A stretch of DNA of 64,000 nucleotides from Cyanidioschyzon merolae (taxonomy: Eukaryota). Shown piece by piece: positions 1 through 64,000 of this stretch (its first letter is position 1; each line of letters begins with the position of its first letter). The notes below the pieces were generated by a model. It had not been told where the DNA came from. It saw nothing but the letters and a program-made list of their open reading frames with translations, and did not search any database. The translations under genes and the position numbers were made by a program. The DNA lies in the NCBI GenBank assembly GCA_000091205.1, contig AP006502.2. One strand, written 5' to 3'.

Positions 1-726
1 GGAATTCGGAGCAGGTATGCTGCGTCTGCGTGTTGCCCTGCTCGCAGGATTATCCGAGTGTATCGCTTCGCGCTGTCGCAGACACTGGGTCTGTATGCCG
101 AGTTTCCAGACTCCTAGAATGATTATGTACTCAGACCCCGTGATGGGTAAACGAAGTCTCGAGACGATGCCCTAAGTGGTATGGCAAAGCCATTTTGTAA
201 CCGTGATGTTCGGCATCAGCGGTATAGGCGCTGATGTAGGTGTTCGTAGCAGATACTCTGCGAACGATAGAACGTACAAACCGGCCAATACATCCGAGAG
301 GAGGTAATGGAACCTGGAGTCATGGTGCAGCAGTATGATGGACGCTTTCCCGAAAGCCATTATCCAATGATCCTGCAATCTAGAATCCTTGGTCAATGGA
401 ATGGTTCTGTCATCACCGTTAAGGATGCGCAGCCGGGGATCCTGGTCGTCGATGTTGCCTTGTTGTCCCGCAAACTTCATTGCCGAAGATCTGGTACTAA
501 AGTATATAATTATGTCCATAAAGGATCCAGGTATCCCACATCGCCAAGGCGCTCTGGGCCGCGATCTCCCCGGCGCCGCCTTGGGCGCAGCAGAGCGCAG
601 CGTCTGACGGACCGGGAGCATTAGCACTGGACGCGAAAGTTTAGGATTAGGATTGACGCCCGCAAGAGTACCTAGATCGTTTTTGTGCGTTGCATCCAAA
701 GGCTAGCTATTCAAAGACTTGCGAGT

Positions 727-3201
727 ATGGGCTTTGTCTCGGGACGTGCGCACAACGGCCGTGCGCTTTCCGGAAGCACGAAGCCAAATGACACAACGTG
801 CTCTTGCTGTAGGGTCAGTGCCCTCTGGCGAGCAGGTCCAGGCCACAGACTTGCGAGGCGCAGTGCTATCGAGCGCGCGCTGCCACGGCCAGGAGTAGCT
901 AGGCCTAGAGCCCGTTCAAAGGGAGCAGCACTTGAGGTGCAACTGCGCACTCCAGGTAGAGCGCCGTCACCCAGCGAGACCTTGGAACCTGACTCGAGTG
1001 TCTCGGAAAGGAACCGAGACGCCGGCGCGCTCCCAGCGCTAGACGAAACACAGCGTCAGGCTGCTTACCGGAAGCTGCGCGATCCTTGGTTCTATCCAAA
1101 AGGTACGCTGATGCGCACTTTCGGCTGGGCTTCTGTTCCGTCCATATGGGAAACACTTGCCGAAGCGTACAGCGAGATCACGGCTCTCATCGACGAGCAT
1201 AATCCATACCGCCAGAAGATAAGCTGGACGTATGCGGAGGTTCACGAGGAAATCCGAGAGTTGGCTGCAGGTCTTCGCCACCACGGCCTAACGAACCTGC
1301 AACCGGGAGACATCGTTGCACTTTTCAGTGAGAATAGCGCACGCTGGCTCATAACCGATCAGGCGCTCATGTGGAATGGTGCGGCGTCGGCAGTGCGCGG
1401 GACTGCTGCACCGCTCGATGAACTCGCCTATATTCTCGAGCACAGTGATGCTTGCGGGCTTGTCGTTGATACGCCCACCGTATTGGAAAAACTCATTCGA
1501 AACGAACAGGCCACTCGCTGCCTGGCGAAACAGGTGCGATTTATCATGGTATTATGGAATAGAAAAGGTGCAATCGCGGAACCTATTCGTTCAGCGGTCG
1601 GGTCGGTTCCAATCTATACCTACGAGGAGGTCACGGAGACCGGGCGAGCGAAAGTGCGAGATGCCCTGAACCGTACGTCGAGATCGCCCGCAGACGCTGA
1701 AATGGAGCGGGCGCTTTGGCGTCCCATCGCAGAACGTGAGATGTTAGCGACGCTGGTGTATACCTCGGGAACGACGGGCCAACCAAAGGGCGCTATGTTG
1801 ACCCATCGCAACCTGCTCCACCAAATCATGGCCAATTCTTTCTCCAGGGCATGGCGACCGCTGCTACCGTCGCAGGACGCATCCGCTGGAGACGTCATGG
1901 TGAATATTCTACCCTGCTGGCACATTTTCGAAAGAATCGGAGAACTTTACGCCCTGAGCCGCGGCGTCTCCATGGTATACAGCAAATTGTTGCACTTCAA
2001 AGAGGATCTCGCACGTCACCGACCCCATCTCCTTGTTGGGGTACCACGTCTTTACGAGAGCATTTATCAGGGAATCAAGTCGCAGCTGATGAAGCAGGGT
2101 CGATTCCGACGTGCACTGATCTTTGGCCTCTTGGGCATCAGCACTCGGTTTGTGCAGTGGCGGCGGATTCGAGACGGGGCCCTTTTTGATCGCCACGTCT
2201 CGACGCTGGAGCGCATATATGCAGGACTTTGGACGTTGCTGCTGTGGCCGTTGCATATGCTCGCAAACCTCATCGCATGGCGTCAACTGCGGCGTATGGC
2301 GCTCGGCGGGCGCGTGCGTACCCTAGTGAGTGGAGGTGGCTCCCTTGCCATGTTTCTGGATGACTTTTTCGAGGCTATCGGCGTGTTGCTAATCGTGGGT
2401 TACGGGCTCACAGAGACGAGTCCGGTTCTAGCCAATCGACTTCGAGAGCACAACATTCGCGGGACGACGGGGCTAGTGGTGCCCGGCACACAAGTCAAAA
2501 TCGTGGATCCTGAAACGCGTCAGACCCTGCCACCGGGTCAGACTGGTATCATCTGTGCCCGGGGAGAGCAGATTTTCCAAGGCTACTACAAGGACCCTGC
2601 GGCTACTGCGCGCGTCATTGACAGTGAAGGATACTTTGATACTGGCGACCTAGGGTTCTTTTCGCAGTACACCGGTGATCTGGTGATTGCCGGCCGACTG
2701 AAAGACGTTATCGTGTTGAACAATGGCGAGAATATCGAGCCGACGCCCATTGAAGACGCGATGCTTGGTTCCGACTATATTGATCAGGTGATGCTCGTGG
2801 GCCAGGACCAACGGGCGCTCGGTGCTTTGATCGTGCCTAACCTGGAAGCACTGGCGGTGGACGGCCTTGTCTCCGCGGAGACACGTGAGCGAATTCAGTC
2901 ACTGCAGCGACAACGTGCTAGCTGCGAACGTGCGGAGGCCGCGGCGCTAGACGCTGCGCTCGCTCGCGAGGCTGCAGCCATGGAGCAGGATCCACGTCTC
3001 AGGGAAGCGCTGCAACGAGAAATCACGAGTCGGGTGGAGGCTCGGAAAAACTACCTTGCGATTGAGCGGGTGTCACGTTTCCGGATTCTATTGACTCCAT
3101 TTACTGTTGACGACGGGACCCTGACGCAAACGCTCAAAGTACGACGCAATGTGGTAGCAGAGCGCTATGCTGAGCTCATTCGTGCCATGTACGAGTCTTG
3201 A
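727..3201 (+). CDS. Long-chain acyl-CoA synthetase (AMP-binding enzyme). The first ~140 aa are Arg/Ala/Pro-rich low complexity, possibly a targeting peptide, so the true start may be further downstream.
   Basis: AMP-binding signature LVYTSGTTGQPKGAML. Other motifs GYGLTETSPV and FDTGDLG...RLKDVIVLNNGENIEPTPIE. The track ORF 685..3201 begins with GTG; the first in-frame ATG is at 727. Confidence 0.8.
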   Translation: MGFVSGRAHNGRALSGSTKPNDTTCSCCRVSALWRAGPGHRLARRSAIERALPRPGVARPRARSKGAALEVQLRTPGRAPSPSETLEPDSSVSERNRDAGALPALDETQRQAAYRKLRDPWFYPKGTLMRTFGWASVPSIWETLAEAYSEITALIDEHNPYRQKISWTYAEVHEEIRELAAGLRHHGLTNLQPGDIVALFSENSARWLITDQALMWNGAASAVRGTAAPLDELAYILEHSDACGLVVDTPTVLEKLIRNEQATRCLAKQVRFIMVLWNRKGAIAEPIRSAVGSVPIYTYEEVTETGRAKVRDALNRTSRSPADAEMERALWRPIAEREMLATLVYTSGTTGQPKGAMLTHRNLLHQIMANSFSRAWRPLLPSQDASAGDVMVNILPCWHIFERIGELYALSRGVSMVYSKLLHFKEDLARHRPHLLVGVPRLYESIYQGIKSQLMKQGRFRRALIFGLLGISTRFVQWRRIRDGALFDRHVSTLERIYAGLWTLLLWPLHMLANLIAWRQLRRMALGGRVRTLVSGGGSLAMFLDDFFEAIGVLLIVGYGLTETSPVLANRLREHNIRGTTGLVVPGTQVKIVDPETRQTLPPGQTGIICARGEQIFQGYYKDPAATARVIDSEGYFDTGDLGFFSQYTGDLVIAGRLKDVIVLNNGENIEPTPIEDAMLGSDYIDQVMLVGQDQRALGALIVPNLEALAVDGLVSAETRERIQSLQRQRASCERAEAAALDAALAREAAAMEQDPRLREALQREITSRVEARKNYLAIERVSRFRILLTPFTVDDGTLTQTLKVRRNVVAERYAELIRAMYES

Positions 3202-3576
3202 GGCGTGCGCGCTGGCGCTTCAACGGAAATGTGCAGTTCTACCGCAACCGTGAGCTGCATGATCCGGTTGCGCTCTTCAGTCAGTCTGCGTGCACGAGCG
3301 CTGCTGTGCTGTTTTGGCGCACAACAGCAACCTCTTCATCGCACCTGGAGAATACTTCGTCGATGAATAGCATCTCCATGCGTGAGCGTTCTATATCAGC
3401 GCTGTAGCATTCACCGCTTTTACTGAGAAATTCGCCGGCACCCGGGCACACAGCAACGCACCGGACCTGTCATATCATGCTCTGCCCCGAGGCGTCGCTC
3501 GTCACACACACACACATCCAGGGTGTTCCTTGTCCAGGCCTCACTTGAATAGGAGAATCAGCAGCGTATTCGCCTC

Positions 3577-4707
3577 TTATGCCAAGGAATTGCGCATGCA
3601 TGCATCGGCCAGCTCCTCGTACATGCCTTTTCGGAGCGGATCGACCATTGGGAGCTCTTCCCCGAGGATACGCGCCGCTTCCTTGTGCTGTCCGAGGTTC
3701 ATGAGGTGCCGAGCTTTGGCCTCTAACGCCCACCTCGCTGTAGGTTCAAGTTCTAGCAAAGCGTCCAGGAGATCGAGTTCCTTCTCCAGATAATGACGAT
3801 GATCGTGAGCTTGATTTTGCGTGTGGGATGCCTGGTCGAGTTGTCGGTGCTGCTGCAGCTGCTCCATGCACCAGTGATAGTAAAACCAAACAGACTGATC
3901 GTTCGGTTCCGTATACATGACCTGATGAAGGGCATCGAGCTCTTCCAGCCAGTCAAAGTCTTGCGGTGCTTCCTTAACCGCTATGCTGCGATAATGATAA
4001 GCCGTGTAATTACAGCTGTTTTGATCCAGGACTGTGCGCGTGATGTGCAGCAGGCGCTTCCCCGCTGCTGCGCCCGCTACAGGTGCACCGCCTTCCCCGC
4101 ACGACGACGATGACGACGACAAATCGAGGCCGATGCCCTTTGTCAGCGTCAGCACTTCGACCAAGTGGCGCCACCCGAGAAAGTTGCGATCATCCAGAGC
4201 GAGCAACTGTTTGCAAAGCGCCTCTTCTCTGGCGAGGTAGACCTGAGCCAGGTCCAGCGGTACTATCCACGGTGGTCGCCACTGACAGTTTCCAAGTCCA
4301 GGTACCGCAGTGGATGTACTGTCGGGTGACAGTGGCAGTACTGCGCGTAAAAGCCACAGCCGGTGCGCCCACGTCGCGTATGACTTGGGGTTCTGCCGCA
4401 GTGCTGCCTCGGTGACGCGAAACTCGGCCTCAACTTGCTCCCGGAGCGCCGGCGGAGGCGATAAACCAGCATTTTCCGACGCTGTAGCAAGTTCCAGACG
4501 GTATCTCTCTACCAAGCAAGCTTTCCGCCGGTTCCACAGCGAGTACTCCTCCGGGTTACGTAAAAGCACGGGTTCCGAGCGCTTGAGAAAGCACTCTCGC
4601 GATAGAGCGTAACGCTGTTGCAAAACTTGCCGAGCCTCAGCACTCCATTGTTCATAACGTTGTGCCTGCTCAATCGTTTGGTTCCAGGTTCGACGGACTC
4701 CGTGCAT
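3577..4707 (-). CDS. Protein prenyltransferase alpha subunit (PPTA-repeat protein, RabGGTase/FTase alpha-like).
   Basis: Five PPTA-type repeats (YSLWNRRKACL, NPKSYATWAHRLWLL, DDRNFLGWRHLVEVL, CNYTAYHYRSIAV, NDQSVWFYYHWCMEQ). The track ORF begins with TTG at 4809; the first ATG (MHGVRRTW...) is at 4707. Confidence 0.65.
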   Translation of the reverse strand: MHGVRRTWNQTIEQAQRYEQWSAEARQVLQQRYALSRECFLKRSEPVLLRNPEEYSLWNRRKACLVERYRLELATASENAGLSPPPALREQVEAEFRVTEAALRQNPKSYATWAHRLWLLRAVLPLSPDSTSTAVPGLGNCQWRPPWIVPLDLAQVYLAREEALCKQLLALDDRNFLGWRHLVEVLTLTKGIGLDLSSSSSSCGEGGAPVAGAAAGKRLLHITRTVLDQNSCNYTAYHYRSIAVKEAPQDFDWLEELDALHQVMYTEPNDQSVWFYYHWCMEQLQQHRQLDQASHTQNQAHDHRHYLEKELDLLDALLELEPTARWALEAKARHLMNLGQHKEAARILGEELPMVDPLRKGMYEELADACMRNSLA

Positions 4708-27029: not shown

Positions 27030-29505
27030 CAGCTTGGGTAGCGCATCGTAGGGGCATCGAGAGTAGTGTGCTGTCGAAACTGGGGCATTTGCTCTGTACC
27101 AACAGAAAGGTACTGGGAATCAGCGGTTTTCTCGATCGATTTAGCGGATGAAGATGCGTTTCATCGGGAAGGAAAAATGATTCTGCTGGAATAGATGGAA
27201 TACTTTGTCTGGTGTCCAGAGGAAATGTGTCGCTCGATTCCTCCGCTGAAAGAATGGACGACGAGTGCGTACCAGTGACCGAAGGAAAAGTTCCGGATAT
27301 CAAGTTGAAGCTGAAGTCTTTCCTCCGAGAGCGCTATCGCAAACGGATAAAGGCCTTCGTCTCGCGTATAAACTCATCCTGGGCTAGCGACTGGAAAAGG
27401 AAATCAACGCCCTTGCGAACCTCCGCATGCTAGGGATTCTCTCTGGAGACCCTTGACTCGGGTCACACGATCGTTTGTTTCCCTTGCTGCTATCACCGAA
27501 AAGACTTAGGTACAAGAAGGTCAAAGATTGGACGAGCGAAGAGGCCACAAACGCGCTCCCGTTCCCGGATAGGAACTTTTCTTTGCGCTCGCTGAATCGC
27601 CTCTACCGAGCGGAGCACCCGAGACCACGCCAGAGCCATTGGCTCGAGTCTCGTGTCGAGCCCAGGTGAACGCGATTGCCTCCGAGGCGGGCGAACGTAA
27701 GCACAAACCGGAATGCCGAAACATTGAGTGCCACCGAATGGGTATTTCTTTGGAATGACGCAGATGCCCGCAGAGCTTTCCATTTTGAGGGCGACCATAC
27801 AAACGCATCACATCAAGATGAATCTCGGGTGTCGTGCCGCCTGTTACATCCAGCTCATGCATGGAAACGCAACCAAGGGCGTCTCGAGAGAGACAGATAG
27901 AAACAGAGAGAAACACTTTCTCTGTGCCGCCGTCACTCGACCGTTCGAGGGTGTCGACGTTCTCGGCCCGCCAAGTGATATAGAACGGAAAGCGAAGATG
28001 AAACTGGCGGTCGAGATCGCCGAAGACTTGAAGAGACACATTGACTAGGGTTTGTCTCTGACTGAAGCATTGGTGCACGACGCGCTTGGCGCTTCCTCGA
28101 CCGCACAAACCTCTGGAAGAGGGTATAAACGCTTCGAATACTTGGCGAGAGCAGGATACAGAATGCAGAAGAGGCGAGCGCCACCCCAGGACGTTCTGTC
28201 TGCTGCCGACGAAGCGTGGCTTCACAACTTGTTACGTTCGTGTCAGTTACTTGGCCGTCATGGGCACTCTGCGACGCCACGGCGTTCTGAGAATGAAAGA
28301 AGTCGAAAGGAAATCGAGGCGGGAAATAAAGAGGAAGGTTTACCAGCAAAGCCTCCATATCGAAGCTGCCGAAGCAATGAACAGCCCAATAGGTTTCCGT
28401 TTTCTCTCGGATGGATACGATGTCAGTGTGCAACCGAGAGCATAGTCGAATATTTCGAGTCGAATGGGAAACGACGAAAGCCTCCTGTCTCTGAAACGCA
28501 ACCAAAAGCTCGTAGGCGTGGAGCCGGGTTTTCCGGACGCAGTCACCACTGCGGACTCGGGCGCCGGTTCAGAAACGCGTCATTTACACCAGCAGAAGAA
28601 AGGACTTCGAGGCGAGGATCGCGTACAGCGCGAGGAAAACGCTAAAAACAAGAATCAACAGACAGACATACGGACGGACGGACGACGTGACTGCTTGTCT
28701 CCGCATTTGCGAGATAACAGACTCGGAAGCTTCCGAAACTCGTCTGCGGCCGTATTTGAGCATTCTTCCGGAATGACTGCGAGACAGAGCTCGTTCTGGA
28801 TACCAGCGCCTGAGGTGCCATTCGTTCCACGTTCGACCAGAGGGCAATCCATGGATGTTCAGTCTCTTCTGGTACCGAGTGGCGAAGAGTCGGTCATCGA
28901 GCTCGGAGAGCGGGATGAGGGCGCCAAGCGTCCGATATCCCGTCATACGTCCAGTGCATGGGCAGCGATAACAAACAAGTCAACGGGAACGCCTGATGTG
29001 CGTATGGCGGACCTCTATGAATGCCGGACGTCGCTGCCGTGTTGGCGGTGCGCAAGTCGCCTCTCGAACACGAACGGAGCGACGACGTGGGTCATCACGA
29101 AGAATGAGTCGAGAGAAAGGAAAAGAAAGGAACTCGTACATGTCTCGGATTCACAGAGCACTGCACTGCAAGTGTGTCAGATGCGGGAGCAGCGCGGACT
29201 CTCCCAGCAGAGGTACCACATGGAACTGTGGCGACGACAACGCGTGCCACAACATCCTGGGGCTGCTGCAGGTCGGAATGCGAAGCAGTCGACAACCTGC
29301 ACCGTTTCGCCGCGCGATAAAAAATGAACATCCTGTGACTGAGGCAAAAAGCCGTGGCATCCTCGCAGACCAAAGCGTCTTGATGCGAAGTATGGGTTAC
29401 GTTACCTTGGATCTCGTATATAACGAGCATTATATTCTGATAAAGTCACGCGCGAGAAACTGACATGAAACGCCAATCCGACGATTTTTGCGTATGCATG
29501 TATGG
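27030..29505. repeat. IR1-L: left arm of a ~2.47-kb inverted repeat pair.
   Basis: Translated ORFs recur in the opposite orientation at 43,155-45,615, with at most one substitution in the inner half of the arm (28996..29463 vs 43192..43659 differ at one residue in 155 aa; 29095..29430 vs 43225..43560 are identical over 111 aa). The coordinate sum is constant at about 72,655. Boundaries were checked by reverse-complementing the ends. Confidence 0.9.
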
Positions 29506-35186: not shown

Positions 35187-36851
35187 AACTAAGCACCAAC
35201 AACACCACCTTCGAATTGCGCGTGTACAGGTCAGCGTGGGTTAATCGTCTGGCACCCCTCCCCCATAGCGCCCCAGCAGCGAGAAGAAGCTCACCGAGCA
35301 GTTTCCCTTCGGCAGGAGCCCCGCCAAGCGCTGCACAGATCCGCTCGCCTCTGGCACCTCTGACGCCGCAGTCGGTGCCGTCGCCTGCGCACAGATCAGG
35401 CGTGACGCGTCGTCCGATCGGTGCAACGTTGACACCCGGGACGGGTGAACACGACGCCGGTGCACGCGACCTGCTGGAATCTGCAATGACGCTGGGATCG
35501 ATGCCGTCCCCCGGAAACCAAAAGCATCTGTATATCCTGGAGCGTCTAGGCATGCTCATCAATAAAGCATTAATAGTTGTCTTTTCCATGGCGCCGCGGT
35601 TCTTAGCTGGCGACATTCCTCGAACTGCGGCGCGTCGCCACCTGCACATCCCCGTTTTCGGGGAGTTTCTTGTCACATGGATACCTGCTAATCGAAGAGA
35701 TTGCGAACGATTTTGCTTCCAGGGCTAGCGAGAGAGAGTCGAATCTCACCAGAGACCACTCGCTTCGTTGGGGTCTCGAGTAGCCAGGCCACCGTTCTCA
35801 CTGGAAAGCATTTACCGCCAAGAAGAAATGGCAGTCTGGTTCATGGCATATTTCCTAGAATGGGGTCGTTTTGTGTACGGTCTACGTTCCCGTTAATCGT
35901 CTTGTGCATCAGGCTTTGTTTCTCTCTCTTCTTGTTTATCTGTAAAAGAGCAGACACCACCCAGTAACTGGCAACTAGTAAAATAATGTATTTCCCCTAT
36001 ACAGTAAGAAATGAAAGACAGGAAAGTTTTGCGCACGTTCGAAAGTTCAGGTTCAGGACGGAAGATCCCGCGAGCCGTATGATTCTATCGAGCTCGTGCC
36101 TCACGTGATCCACACTGGCGGGTGTTGTGGCGAGACCTGCGCACCTCGTCCGCAAAGCAGTCCTTTTCTGGAACGAGGAGTGCGCTGCCTGCGCCAAAGC
36201 GTCGTCCCGGTCGCTGAGGTCTCCCGACATGTCGTTTCCGGCCGCTGCCGGTTCCAGATCTATGAGAACGTCCGGCTGGATCCCGAATTGACATTGAAAT
36301 CCCAGCCCGTATCGAGTGCACCATACCTCGACCAGACGCCCCAGCGGTATGGGAAAGCCAATCCGTCTCCGTGCTGTATCGGCAACGGCGCGACTAGCGC
36401 TGAACCGGACGCTCCCAGCAGGCTCGGTGTCGGCGAAACGTACTAAATAACCAGCATCTTGTAGAGACTGTACGGGTGGTGGCAGCTGAAAGAATTCGGA
36501 GCTAGGGTACGAAATGATAGACGGTTTCCCACTTGCTGACGTCCATCTCGAAATCGCAGGGACCCCTGGTCCATTTTTTTCACTGACAAACCGTTTACAT
36601 AGGCCAGCGTTCTCCGATTAGGCGCATTTTTCTTTTCTTACTTTTTTCTGTGTTTTTTTTCAGTGCGCGGTGAGGTATCCATCAATCACCTACCTCCGAG
36701 TTACATTACACCCCTGGTCCATGCGAACCTCCTGCCGATCAGAAATCATGCGGACACGTCACCTGGCGGCGCTTCAGTTGAACACGTGTGCGTGTGCGCG
36801 CGAGGCTGCGTTTGACCGCGAGCGGCGGCGCGCGGCCGTAAATCCCGCACG

Positions 36852-60451: not shown

Positions 60452-60583
60452 AAGTTCAGGTGAGTGAAGCACATGCAACGTGTGAAGGTTGCCATCGTTG
60501 GATCCATGGTAAAAAAGTCGTTCAAGTTCAGGTTAATGAAGCCCTTGCAACGCGGAACGTTTGCTGTCGTTGGATCCGTAACC
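60452..60583. repeat. Diverged tandem duplication, two units of about 71 bp, in a convergent 3' intergenic region.
   Basis: aagttcaggtgagtgaagcacatgcaacgtgtgaaggttgccatcgttggatcc aligns with aagttcaggttaatgaagcccttgcaacgcggaacgtttgctgtcgttggatcc. Confidence 0.7.
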
Positions 60584-60877: not shown

Positions 60878-61588
60878 CTAGCGCGGTTCAACGTGATTTT
60901 TTGCGCTGCGCTTTCTCGCTATCTGCTGAGCATCCAGCTCATGATCGCTGCTGGATGCAGTCGCGCTTAGGCACACGTCCACAGACGAAGCGTTTCGCCT
61001 TTTCCGACGACGCCTGAACCACACATTTCTCCGCTGAACGTCTTCGCAGAGCAGAGCAAACCATGCGGGTAGGGTACCCTTATCTACTGCACGGCTCTCT
61101 TCGCTCGTCAGCTTCGCATCAGCGGGTTGCGCGGCGTTGGTCGCCGGCTCGTGCGACAAAACTTTATCGTTTGCGGGCGCGTATCGCAGCGCCTCCGACG
61201 AGACTGCCTGCTCGGGAGCGCTGCAAACCGGAGCGTCTTCGCTTTGCAAAGGACCTTGTGCTGTGCGCGGCGAAGTAACAGACGGCGTCGACGTGCTCTG
61301 TGGTGAATTGCTCCACAAAGACGCAGTAAAGTCCATCTTCTCCGAAAACGCTCCAGGTTTTATGCCAGTCTGACAAGTCAGACAAAGAGCTGTCTCATAT
61401 GCGACTGGCACCTGCTCGCAGCGCTCGCACAACGGCAGCGCTGTCACGGACGAACCCAGCGGCTGCGACGCACTTCGCTGCGCAAATGAATCCCAGCAAC
61501 CATCGCAAATACAAGACTCTTGACAGTATTTGCGAGCAACTGCTTTATTGCAAGTTTCACAGAGTACCTCACAAGTTGCGAGCCGCAT
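60878..61588 (-). CDS. B-box-type zinc-finger protein (two tandem B-box-like Cys motifs).
   Basis: CETCNKAVARKYCQESCICDGCWDSF and CERCEQVPVAYETALCLTCQ resemble the B-box pattern C-x2-C-x7-9-C-x7-C-x2-C. The track start 61651 is GTG; ATG (MRLATCEV...) is at 61588. Confidence 0.45.
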   Translation of the reverse strand: MRLATCEVLCETCNKAVARKYCQESCICDGCWDSFAQRSASQPLGSSVTALPLCERCEQVPVAYETALCLTCQTGIKPGAFSEKMDFTASLWSNSPQSTSTPSVTSPRTAQGPLQSEDAPVCSAPEQAVSSEALRYAPANDKVLSHEPATNAAQPADAKLTSEESRAVDKGTLPAWFALLCEDVQRRNVWFRRRRKRRNASSVDVCLSATASSSDHELDAQQIARKRSAKNHVEPR

Positions 61589-61785
61589 TAAAGCATTCCA
61601 GGCGTCTCTTGAGCGTGTTCGTCTCACAAACGAAAGTTCGCCAGCGCCCACGCACGAAAAAGCCCTCGTGGCAGCGGTGCACTGCAGTGGCGATCGCCGC
61701 GCTCTGGACTAGACATCACCAACTTACGCGCAGACGCCTCGCAGTTTTCTTGGACCGTCCACCCACTACTACTTACAACTTTTTC

Positions 61786-62724
61786 TCATATAGTTCGACT
61801 TGTAGAGGTTGTCCAACTAAGTTCTTTCGTGTCCAATCTGGAGGTCTTTTCTCCACCACCGCACATCTCCGTATTGATTGCGGCATGAAAGCCTCGATTC
61901 ACGAATTCCATCCGTTTCTTGCCATCGTTGGTTGTACTGACCAATGCAAGCGATCCTCGAACTTTCGCCCTCCTTTCCATTAGCTCTTCCGTCAGAGGTC
62001 CGTACTTTTTTATATCCTCAGGGTTCCGCTGACACTTTTCCATCTCGACCCTCTGAAGTGTACAACCCAGCGCGTGGTGTGTATATGATGCTCGAAACTC
62101 ATCTATCGGTATTGTAACGAAACGCCGTGCACACTCCTTGTATACCCTCGTCGTTGGAGCTGGAGTAGTCCTTTTTGGGTCTTCCATCGCCCTGCTCAAT
62201 ACGCTACTACGAGCATCTGACTTTCATCCTCCTATAGGGCGCTCAACTGATTGAAGAAATTCGCGAACGCCCGCTGCTTCCCACAGTACAAATTCAATCG
62301 CAAACGAGCCCACCGGGGCTTTGTATACTCCTCCCACAGCGCATCCCAATGCGCAATGCGAACTTCCATGAATTTCCGAAAAAGCTTCAAAGTCCGCTTC
62401 TCGGCTCGTCACCTCGCTCAAAGCTGCCAGGTGCTCTTTCACTCCTGCGTTCCAAGTCTCAATTTTCTTTCTCGCATTCATCATGCCGGATTCTCGATAG
62501 TATCTCGCTCTCGGGAATCTCAACAGACGCATTTCTCTCTGACGTAAGTTGCCGTTGATACAATCTTCCGCACGCTTTGGTGCTTCAATGGTTATGATAT
62601 TTGTGTTTCCGGGTTCCGCGCGGAAGGTGCCAGATAACGACTTTGTCGTTGGCGCGGACCCCGGAAACACAAATATCATAACCATCGGTGCTCCCAAGCG
62701 CGTGGAAGATGGTGCTGACGGCAA
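61786..62724 (-). pseudogene. Left Fanzor/TnpB-like fragment. The C-terminal RuvC half is split over two frames (62224..62724 and 61786..62199).
   Basis: Frame break between 62224 and 62199. No N-terminal domain; the sequence upstream of 62724 is the partner copy. The apparent N-terminus (VMIFVFPGS) is the antisense reading of the partner's GNTNIITI codons. Confidence 0.45.
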
Positions 62725-63662
62725 CTTACGTCAGAAAGCCATGCGTCTTCTGAGATTATCGAGAGCGAGATACTATCGAGCATCCGCTATAATGAATGCG
62801 AGAAAGAAAATTGAGACTTGGAACGCAGGAGTGAAAGAGCACCTGGCAGCTTTGAGCGAGGTGACGAGCCGAGAAGCGGACTTTGAAGCTTTTTCGGAAA
62901 TTCATGGAAGTTCGCATTGCGCATTGGGATGCGCTGTGGGAGGAGTATACAAAGCCCCGGTGGGCTCGTCTGCGAATGAATCTATACGGTGGGAGGCAGC
63001 GGGCGTTTGCTAATTTTTTCAATCAGTTGAGTGCCTTGAAGGAGGATGAAAGTCAGAGGCGCGTAGTAGCGTATTGAGCAGGGCGCTGGAAGACACAGAA
63101 AGGGCGTTCACCAGCTCCAACGACAAGAACGTACAAAGAGTGTGCACGGCGTTTCGTTACGATACGGGTAGAGGAGTTTCGAGCATCGTATACACACCAA
63201 GAGCTGGGATGTACACTTCAGAGAGTGGAGATGGAAAAGTGCCAGAGCAGCCCTGAGGAAATAGCAAAGTACGGATCGCTGACGGAGGAGCAAATGGAAA
63301 GGAGGGCAAAAGTTCCAGGACTTCTTGCATTAGTGAGTACAACGAGTGACGGCAAGAAGCGGATGGAGTTCGTGAACCGAGACGTTAACCCAGCTATCAA
63401 TATCAGGAAGTGTGCGGTGCTGGAGAAAATACCTCCAGCGTCGACAAGAGAGAACTTTGTTGGACAGCCTCTCAAAGTCGAACTATATGAGAAAAAGTTG
63501 GAAGCAGTAGTGAGTGGCCTGTCCAAAAGACCAGGAGGCGTCTGCACCTCAATTGAAGACTTCTTGTCTAGAGCGGGTTTCTCGCCACTACTGTACCACT
63601 GGCGACGTTCGACTTTCGAACGGCGTTCGATGGAAAGGGTGTTATTGGCCCTAGCTTTTTGA
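62549..63662 (+). pseudogene. Right Fanzor/TnpB-like fragment, split over at least three frames (62549..63013, 63074..63256, 63225..63662). Carries the best-preserved RuvC-III motif RDVNPAINI.
   Basis: Frame breaks and an extra ~190 bp at 63,010-63,225 relative to the left copy. About 75-100% patchy amino-acid identity to the left copy. Confidence 0.45.
62590..62683. repeat. Near-perfect 31-bp inverted repeat (ggttatgatatttgtgtttccgggttccgcgc / its reverse complement with 1 mismatch) separated by a ~30-bp spacer. This is the core of an imperfect ~390-bp-per-arm palindrome.
   Basis: Read directly and reverse-complemented by hand. Confidence 0.85.
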
Positions 63663-64000
63663 GTTTTGATAACGGTGATGAGTCGCTCTGTGTGGTTCGA
63701 GAAGCTGCGTGCTGGCATCGGTACGGTCGCGACGCCGCTGCCGCTGCCAAACACCGCGATTCGACGCAGCCAGAGTTGGAGCCGTCGGTTTGTGGCGCGT
63801 ACGATTGTCGCATTTATAACAGTAGCTGGTTTGGCAACCATAGCTTGGCACTCAAGTTCTTGGCGAGAGGCTGTGTTTCCCACGAAAGTGTTCTCGCAGG
63901 CAAGCACAGAGGCAGCCGCAGCGGCACCCGATACAGCACGAGCGGCACCAGGGTTGCCGCGGACAATGCTCACCAAAGCACCGGGAAAGATCCCTTTCCA

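Follow-up and report, generated by a model that had tools for sequence, protein, structure and literature searches.

Two head-to-head, 5'-truncated gene fragments, very probably of the Fanzor1 element CMe-1A, form an intergenic palindrome in Cyanidioschyzon merolae

Close to one end of a 64,000-nt stretch of DNA (the window, as we call the whole stretch analysed here) lies a palindrome from which nuclease-like motifs can be read on both strands, and the question that it raises is whether such a locus marks a new or working RNA-guided nuclease gene or the remains of a known transposon. Ten long open reading frames of the window are exact matches to annotated proteins of Cyanidioschyzon merolae 10D (BAM83394-BAM83411), among them DNA polymerase I, UDP-glucose dehydrogenase, TAF7 and CMT482C, and the window is therefore taken to be nuclear DNA of this red alga, from chromosome 20 judging by the CMT locus tags. 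The palindrome occupies the intergenic space between two divergently oriented genes. Its left neighbour, on the minus strand at 60878-61588 and outside the element, is CMT646C, a hypothetical Cys-rich protein (exact match to BAM83412.1), and the 3' end of the left arm (61631-61645) lies 43-57 nt upstream of its start codon. To the right, the next host reading frame, as read from the sequence, starts at 63680 on the plus strand and continues beyond the window (63680-64000); a Pfam search with it gave no match.

The inverted repeat was confirmed as four collinear segments over 61681-62621 and 62652-63594, which are 72-91% complementary. From the centre outwards, 62170-62621 pairs with 62652-63103 (452 nt, 91%), 61872-62175 with 63099-63402 (304 nt, 83%), 61750-61870 with 63406-63526 (121 nt, 85%) and 61681-61740 with 63535-63594 (60 nt, 72%), a pairing far beyond chance; aligning the arms takes only about four indel events (9 gapped positions). 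The palindrome is centred on 62636.5, with 30 nt between the arms, which meet at their RuvC-I codons, so that the head-to-head pair of truncated genes reported in the preliminary description is indeed present. The identity of the arms is patchy, as had been stated, but over a wider range than the 75-100% given there: per 100 nt it runs from about 51% (in the outermost 80 nt) to 100%.

The family to which both arms belong was already in print. CMe-1 is the sole Fanzor1 family listed for C. merolae in the paper that defined Fanzor elements (Bao & Jurka 2013, Mobile DNA 4:12; PMC3627910), and the suggestion that such elements had not been described in a genome of this type is thus contradicted by the publication of CMe-1 and CMe-1A in 2013. 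The consensus of CMe-1A is 3169 bp long; the element occurs in about 150 copies, which are some 80% identical to this consensus, and encodes a protein of 734 aa; it is devoid of terminal inverted repeats, its target duplication and classification were left unsettled, and its 5' 635 bp are common to TE-N2_CMe (PMC3627910). When the consensus (Additional file 2 of PMC3627910) was aligned to the window by blastn, the right arm (62619-63625, plus strand) matched consensus nt 2158-3169 with 88.1% identity over 1013 nt, reaching the published 3' terminus, and the left arm (62621-61672, minus strand) matched nt 2191-3142 with 87.4% identity over 953 nt. A three-way alignment of consensus, right arm and left arm showed that the latter runs on to the element end (about nt 3169) at approximately 61631-61645. 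The outer limits of the pair are accordingly about 61631/61645 and 63625; the region originally delimited was the right one, but its limits (61744-63662) were not, and the open reading frame at 63225-63662 overruns the element end by 37 nt. The 30-nt spacer (62622-62651, plus strand) continues the right copy and corresponds to consensus positions of about 2161-2190, so the right copy begins at nt 2158 and the left one at nt 2191. The arms do meet head to head at RuvC-I, as proposed, but their join across the palindrome is not exactly symmetric.

At the protein level the picture was the same. In tblastn searches CMe-1 matched the right copy over residues 417-723 (79-85% amino acid identity) and the decayed left copy over residues 430-730 (about 63-79%); the arms as delimited above correspond to residues of about 417-734 and 430-730, respectively. 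The N-terminal coding part of CMe-1 was found nowhere in the window by tblastn; a weak tblastn match at 27773-28033 (E=0.001) disappeared when full-length CMe-1 was used as the query and was dropped as chance. Neither the 5' 635-bp module nor the full 734-aa reading frame of a complete element is present, and both arms are fragments of the family. We therefore consider it very probable that the locus consists of two 5'-truncated, non-functional copies of CMe-1A placed head to head with their 3' ends outward.

That CMe-1 is a Fanzor-type RuvC gene, as had been supposed from its motifs, was upheld by the consensus identity, by a profile of diverse homologues and by fold comparison, after more direct searches had returned little. 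Searches of Pfam, NCBIfam and PDB with the conceptual proteins of the locus as single sequences were all negative; for the eight longest close homologues no credible Pfam match was obtained; and none of the TnpB models of Pfam and NCBIfam reached threshold for the window copies or their close homologues, PF07282 (Cas12f1-like_TNB) giving sub-threshold matches (E=0.001-0.07) in three distant relatives only. Homologues of the right-copy conceptual protein are nonetheless plentiful in hot-spring metagenomes, where 253 were found at 66-85% identity (some up to 516 aa), and an exhaustive HMMER search with a close-homologue profile retrieved 1490 cluster representatives, many of 600-700 aa. When A1, a shallow profile of 16 sequences (73-81% identical to the first of them), was searched against PDB, it returned no relevant match. 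The AF2 model made from A1 had a pLDDT of 31.8 and was left out of the fold search.

With a profile built from an alignment of 38 diverse homologues (A2), the only significant matches among all PDB sequences were Fanzor1 proteins, those of Parasitella (E=6.8e-21), Spizellomyces (2.3e-12) and Guillardia (2.3e-6). These alignments span a WED-like 'TDGV' segment, RuvC-I (DPG), RuvC-II (DEFRT) and RuvC-III (NRD.NAA.N), and three residues of A2 that are invariant in 38 of 38 homologues, D248, E420 and D489, are the acidic residues of RuvC-I, -II and -III. Paired CxxC motifs were seen neither in CMe-1 itself nor in the consensus of A2, and a canonical zinc ribbon (CxxC...CxxC, between RuvC-II and RuvC-III) is not evident in the family. 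Structure prediction agreed with the profile: the AF2 model of a 516-aa homologue (P0032) on the A2 alignment (pLDDT 78.9, pTM 0.71) had Fanzor1 chains as its top seven Foldseek matches in PDB (E=5.6e-11 to 2e-8, probability 1.00), followed by ISDra2-type TnpB (2.6e-3), then mimivirus Fanzor2 and several types of Cas12. The Fanzor1/TnpB fold was obtained for P0032; of this fold the window copies code for no more than the C-terminal part, which contains RuvC. On this profile and modelled-fold evidence, we place the CMe-1 family among the TnpB/Cas12 RuvC nucleases, in their Fanzor1 branch. The solved Fanzor1 enzymes suggest, by homology, that the intact 734-aa CMe-1 would be an RNA-guided DNA endonuclease whose putative guide would be an omega-RNA transcribed from the 3' end of the element. 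Since the relationship was recovered only through a profile of diverse homologues and fold comparison, the Pfam search for OrfB/TnpB domains that had been recommended, in which no model reached threshold, would on its own lead to a false rejection of the Fanzor identity.

The two copies have decayed to different degrees. Read on the plus strand with one frameshift and one stop, the right arm gives DFVVGADPGNTNII ... VVAY*AGRW ... VEEFRASYTHQELGC ... FVNRDVNPAINIRKC; it contains GADPGNTN at 62651-62674 (RuvC-I), VEEFRAS with its glutamate codon at 63174-63176 (RuvC-II) and NRDVNPAINI with its aspartate codon at 63381-63383 (RuvC-III). All three D/E/D codons are thus kept, and the distance from RuvC-I to RuvC-III is 243 aa, in good agreement with the spacing of about 245 aa first estimated. 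The RuvC motifs had been thought to survive in both copies, but this holds for the right copy only: the left one reads RAEPGNTN at RuvC-I (D to E) and NRGFHAAINT at RuvC-III (D to G), so that two catalytic aspartates are gone. Both copies, as anticipated, lack the REC/WED half, that is N-terminal residues 1-417 or 1-429 (about 57% of the protein). Common to both is a +1 T insertion, seen in a T-run at 62890-62894 in the right copy and in an A-run at 62379-62383 (plus strand) in the left. They also have in common a premature TGA, at 63075-63077 (plus strand) in the right copy, where VVAY*AGRW has a stop in place of a consensus glycine codon (GGA), and at 62196-62198 (minus strand) in the left; the T that makes this stop, at consensus nt 2613, was seen in no more than 3 of the 70 other copies compared. 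Further stops are present in the left copy. Since the N-terminal half is missing, the frameshift and the TGA are shared and the left aspartates are lost, both copies must on their reading frames be regarded as dead, and the locus could not encode a Fanzor1 enzyme.

It is therefore most improbable that the region holds a Fanzor gene that is active or was so until recently, or the first example of a new Fanzor-like family. Such a reading can draw on the three catalytic codons of the right copy, on its 85% amino acid identity to metagenomic homologues and on the long open frames that persist in some family members elsewhere. Against it, the family, its consensus and its protein have been in print since 2013 (PMC3627910), more than half of the protein is missing here, both arms carry a frameshift and an in-frame stop, and no open reading frame at the locus corresponds to a recorded protein. 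The same is true of every reading frame inside the palindrome, none of which is an annotated or predicted protein in the protein collection; this includes the antisense pair at 61399-61983 and 63218-63976, described earlier as shadows of the repeat, which do overlap the outer arms and gave no Pfam match above threshold. The palindrome represents an already known family in a degenerate, non-functional arrangement, an ordinary transposon relic and not a first sighting.

How the two fragments came to face each other is a separate question, on which the divergence of the arms has a direct bearing. The arms differ from each other at 165 of 980 positions (16.8%), mostly by substitutions. In these 980 alignment columns, 777 are identical in the consensus and both arms, 69 are private to the right arm, 83 are private to the left arm, and in 38 the arms are alike and differ from the consensus. 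Those 38 'shared derived' sites were initially considered as a sign of duplication in situ. The argument was dropped after a separate alignment with 70 independent copies taken from metagenome contigs, in which most of the 37 arm-shared states proved to be common family polymorphisms and neither arm was the closest relative of the other. Beyond a patch of 250 nt, 154 of 730 sites (21%) differ between the arms, against 13-15% between arm and consensus. Within this patch lies a run of 178 nt (62792-62969 on the plus strand, with its partner at 62304-62481 on the minus strand) over which the arms are identical, which at 16.8% overall divergence has P ~1e-12. The run includes 15 differences from the consensus, the +1 T among them, and several of the states shared within it are absent or rare in the 70 other copies. 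Because 178 identical nucleotides here carry 15 non-consensus bases, we read the run as a gene-conversion tract: at least one arm-to-arm conversion event (of at least 178 nt) must have followed the divergence of the arms. The arms themselves are, from these comparisons, ancient, about as diverged as independent members of the family. An old duplication with partial gene conversion had been proposed; the conversion is borne out by the 178-nt tract, but the duplication is not established, as beyond that tract either arm resembles its partner no more than it does unrelated copies.

For the near-symmetric junction our slight and tentative preference is for a pair of old head-to-head insertions that later suffered a single central deletion. 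The inner parts would have been removed by a hairpin- or slippage-mediated deletion in a repeat-prone zone: the junction carries a short GCGC-type microhomology and falls within the family's 80-bp tandem-repeat unit (consensus nt 2117-2196), which is present 1-6 times in tandem among other CMe-1A copies. Bearing on any account of the origin, both arms finish at the element's own 3' terminus, the outer flanks are unrelated, and another head-to-head pair, of longer copies that are 85% complementary and separated by a 1.8-kb spacer, was found at a metagenomic locus (L014). Two insertions and a deletion whose endpoints are separated by only about 30 nt of element sequence nonetheless require more events than a single snap-back. 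Nor has an intermediate with longer arms or a single arm been seen among orthologous contigs, which break at the repeat: two independent assemblies (L002 and L003) cross CMT646C and break off at the left arm's outer edge, and all three contigs of the orthologous locus traced through CMT482C end at or before that edge.

Nearly as probable is a one-step fold-back, in which a single 5'-truncated copy or 3'-anchored intermediate folded at the GCGC microhomology and was copied, the spacer being the loop, after which the arms would have diverged over a time as long as the history of the family. One event would then suffice. Breakpoints that abut about 30 nt apart, with a spacer that continues one arm, are the classic signature of fold-back inversion, the junction lies in a slippage-prone, tandemly repeated segment, and outer ends at the element's 3' terminus would be expected if that terminus had bounded the folded molecule. 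A chromosomal version of the event would, however, have duplicated the flank too, and the flanks are unrelated; outside the conversion patch, the TGA is the only private mutation common to the arms; and the CMe-1A transposition intermediate that the alternative version requires is hypothetical. Arms that are nearest relatives of each other, with private mutations in common and a duplicated flank, are thus not what was found, although a fold-back of great age, or one that the element terminus had bounded, would be compatible with this result. A second dimer with this junction was also absent from 84 related loci (620 kb), which gave no junction-spanning BLAST match, and from 374 homologous proteins, none of which carries the antisense-junction peptide.

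It is rather unlikely that the transposition machinery of CMe-1A itself produced the dimer in a single step, through a replication or repair intermediate that was anchored at the 3' terminal hairpin and snapped back inside the 80-bp repeat zone. If this were true, palindromic dimers with their 3' ends outward would be a footprint of transposase-less Fanzor1 copying, and the target or a TAM-like site would be marked by two conserved flanks, T-rich/C on the 5' side and TT(T/C)GTT on the 3' side. We consider it very unlikely that the palindrome is itself mobile, as a non-autonomous foldback-type element derived from CMe-1A with two 3' halves as long inverted terminal repeats. Both of its ends are genuine element 3' termini, the right arm has a 7-8 bp terminal hairpin, and internally deleted CMe-1A relatives do exist (L052 and L054, in which consensus nt 2-636 are joined to 2239-3169); yet the junction was found in no other sampled locus or protein, and arms that have diverged by 21% are too different for a recently mobile unit. 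Some library and long-read methods are known to create short-spacer palindromes as artefacts, and a chimeric fold-back read or collapsed repeat might therefore be suspected here, but this is highly improbable, as an assembly artefact would leave near-identical arms rather than 165 differences in 980 positions, mostly substitutions with about four indel events, and the boundary between the flank and the left arm was recovered in two independent assemblies (Logan SRR35626486 and JGI 3300057245).

An omega-RNA-like region at the 3' end had been suggested in the preliminary description as something to look for. The last 20 nt of the element are predicted to form a 7-8 bp hairpin that exists in two sequence versions, CGTTTTTC-TTTT-GAAAGRCG and CGTTCGA-CTT-TCGAACG, and a third variant, CGTTCTA-CTT-TAGAACG, keeps the pairing. 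For the final 120 nt, compared in 27 copies, RNAalifold supported nothing larger than a 3-bp stem, with covariation essentially absent, and a search of the whole window against Rfam found no family; for these reasons we make no claim of an omega-RNA. The metagenomic copies indicate that the published CMe-1A 3' end may be a few nucleotides short, and their arrangement suggests that the 5' 635-bp TE-N2_CMe module is separable from CMe-1A.

Annotators should mask two CMe-1A (Fanzor1) fragments here and not record the region as a new nuclease or a first red-algal example. More generally, the CMe-1 lineage of Fanzor1 is missed entirely by the curated Pfam TnpB models. Hot-spring metagenomes contain hundreds of CMe-1 copies, some of them long and open, a resource from which the true ends of the element, its target site and a possible omega-RNA could be derived for a family whose transposition mode the 2013 paper (PMC3627910) had not settled.

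Compared with known systems, the locus is closest to CMe-1A as published (PMC3627910): host genome and sequence family are the same and the arms are 87-88% identical to the consensus, but here only the 3' third of the element is present, twice and inverted, and no such dimer appears in that paper. Among proteins of solved structure, SpuFz1 (8GKH), PpFz1 (9CF0) and GtFz1 (9CER) are the best fold matches of the family homologue P0032, although their identity to this homologue is only 12-16% (TM 0.41-0.49) and the window copies are truncated pseudogenes. The bacterial TnpB proteins of IS200/IS605 and IS607 elements (such as ISDra2 TnpB, 8H1J) and Cas12 have the RuvC fold and the D-E-D order in common with the CMe-1 family; unlike bacterial TnpB, the latter escapes the curated TnpB models and resides in a eukaryotic nuclear genome with no accompanying TnpA. 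In its architecture, the locus resembles the degenerate palindromes with arm-to-arm conversion known from sex chromosomes and inverted transposable element pairs, which similarly combine long arms, a short spacer and an identical tract, but here the arms measure about 1 kb, conversion covers some 18-25% of an arm and no gene has been preserved.

The 5' end of the published Fanzor1 transposon CMe-1A (consensus 3169 bp) is also represented in the window apart from the palindrome. We identified two further fragments that match its 5' module, both on the minus strand, one at 8-414 (consensus nt 2-405, 77% identity) and the other at 35945-36383 (consensus nt 198-636, 71% identity). Alignment to the consensus places both within the part of CMe-1A that is common to TE-N2_CMe, an element sharing the first 635 bp, and they are probably copies of TE-N2_CMe. 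About half of the metagenomic copies (loci L006-L084) either start near consensus nt 648-690 and lack the 635-bp module, or carry part of it inverted (for example, L068:1-619 versus 643-3155, and L026:2821-3013 versus 3119-4679). These alignments suggest that TE-N2_CMe does not form the fixed 5' end of the Fanzor unit but is an associated element that can be separated from it.

Other arrangements of the element also occur among the related loci. A second head-to-head pair, made up of longer CMe-1-type copies that are ~85% complementary, spans L014:1-4727; its 5' ends point inward and ~1.8 kb separates the homologous arms. Two other loci (L052:4733-6329 and L054:8159-9755) hold an internally deleted derivative in which consensus nt 2-636 and nt 2239-3169 are separated by a 57-nt gap, a structure that could possibly represent a non-autonomous form of CMe-1A. 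In the window palindrome, the junction lies inside an ~80-bp unit (consensus nt 2117-2196) found directly upstream of the RuvC-I codons. This unit codes for an acidic stretch of ~26 aa (KHEEKKEADPATQEVQENDFVV), which is present in one to six tandem repeats depending on the copy (loci L005-L084; for example, L026:4675-5051 and L017:1071-1372). Separately, a 54-nt direct repeat (window 60452-60505 and 60524-60577; 80% identical, spacing 72 nt) sits between the host genes CMT482C and CMT646C, to the left of the palindrome.

In precomputed Pfam annotation, PF26935 (DUF8286) is weakly assigned to several homologous proteins whose sequences extend into the N-terminal part (P0008, P0011, P0015, P0017 and others; L001:130-1680), and was not returned by a separate Pfam profile search of the eight longest close homologues. 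This domain may simply be a Fanzor1 N-terminal region.

The target site of CMe-1A could not be determined in the 2013 Fanzor paper (Bao & Jurka, 2013; PMC3627910). We compared the flanks of non-redundant copies from L005-L084 and the window (27 for the 3' side, 21 for the 5' side). The six bases that immediately follow the published 3' terminus are T (26/27), T (24/27), T or C, G (20/27), T and T, as exemplified by window 63626-63641, and the 5' end is directly preceded by a T-run whose last base is C. This pattern would be explained either by a published consensus that is several nucleotides short or by an element with a strong T-rich target preference.
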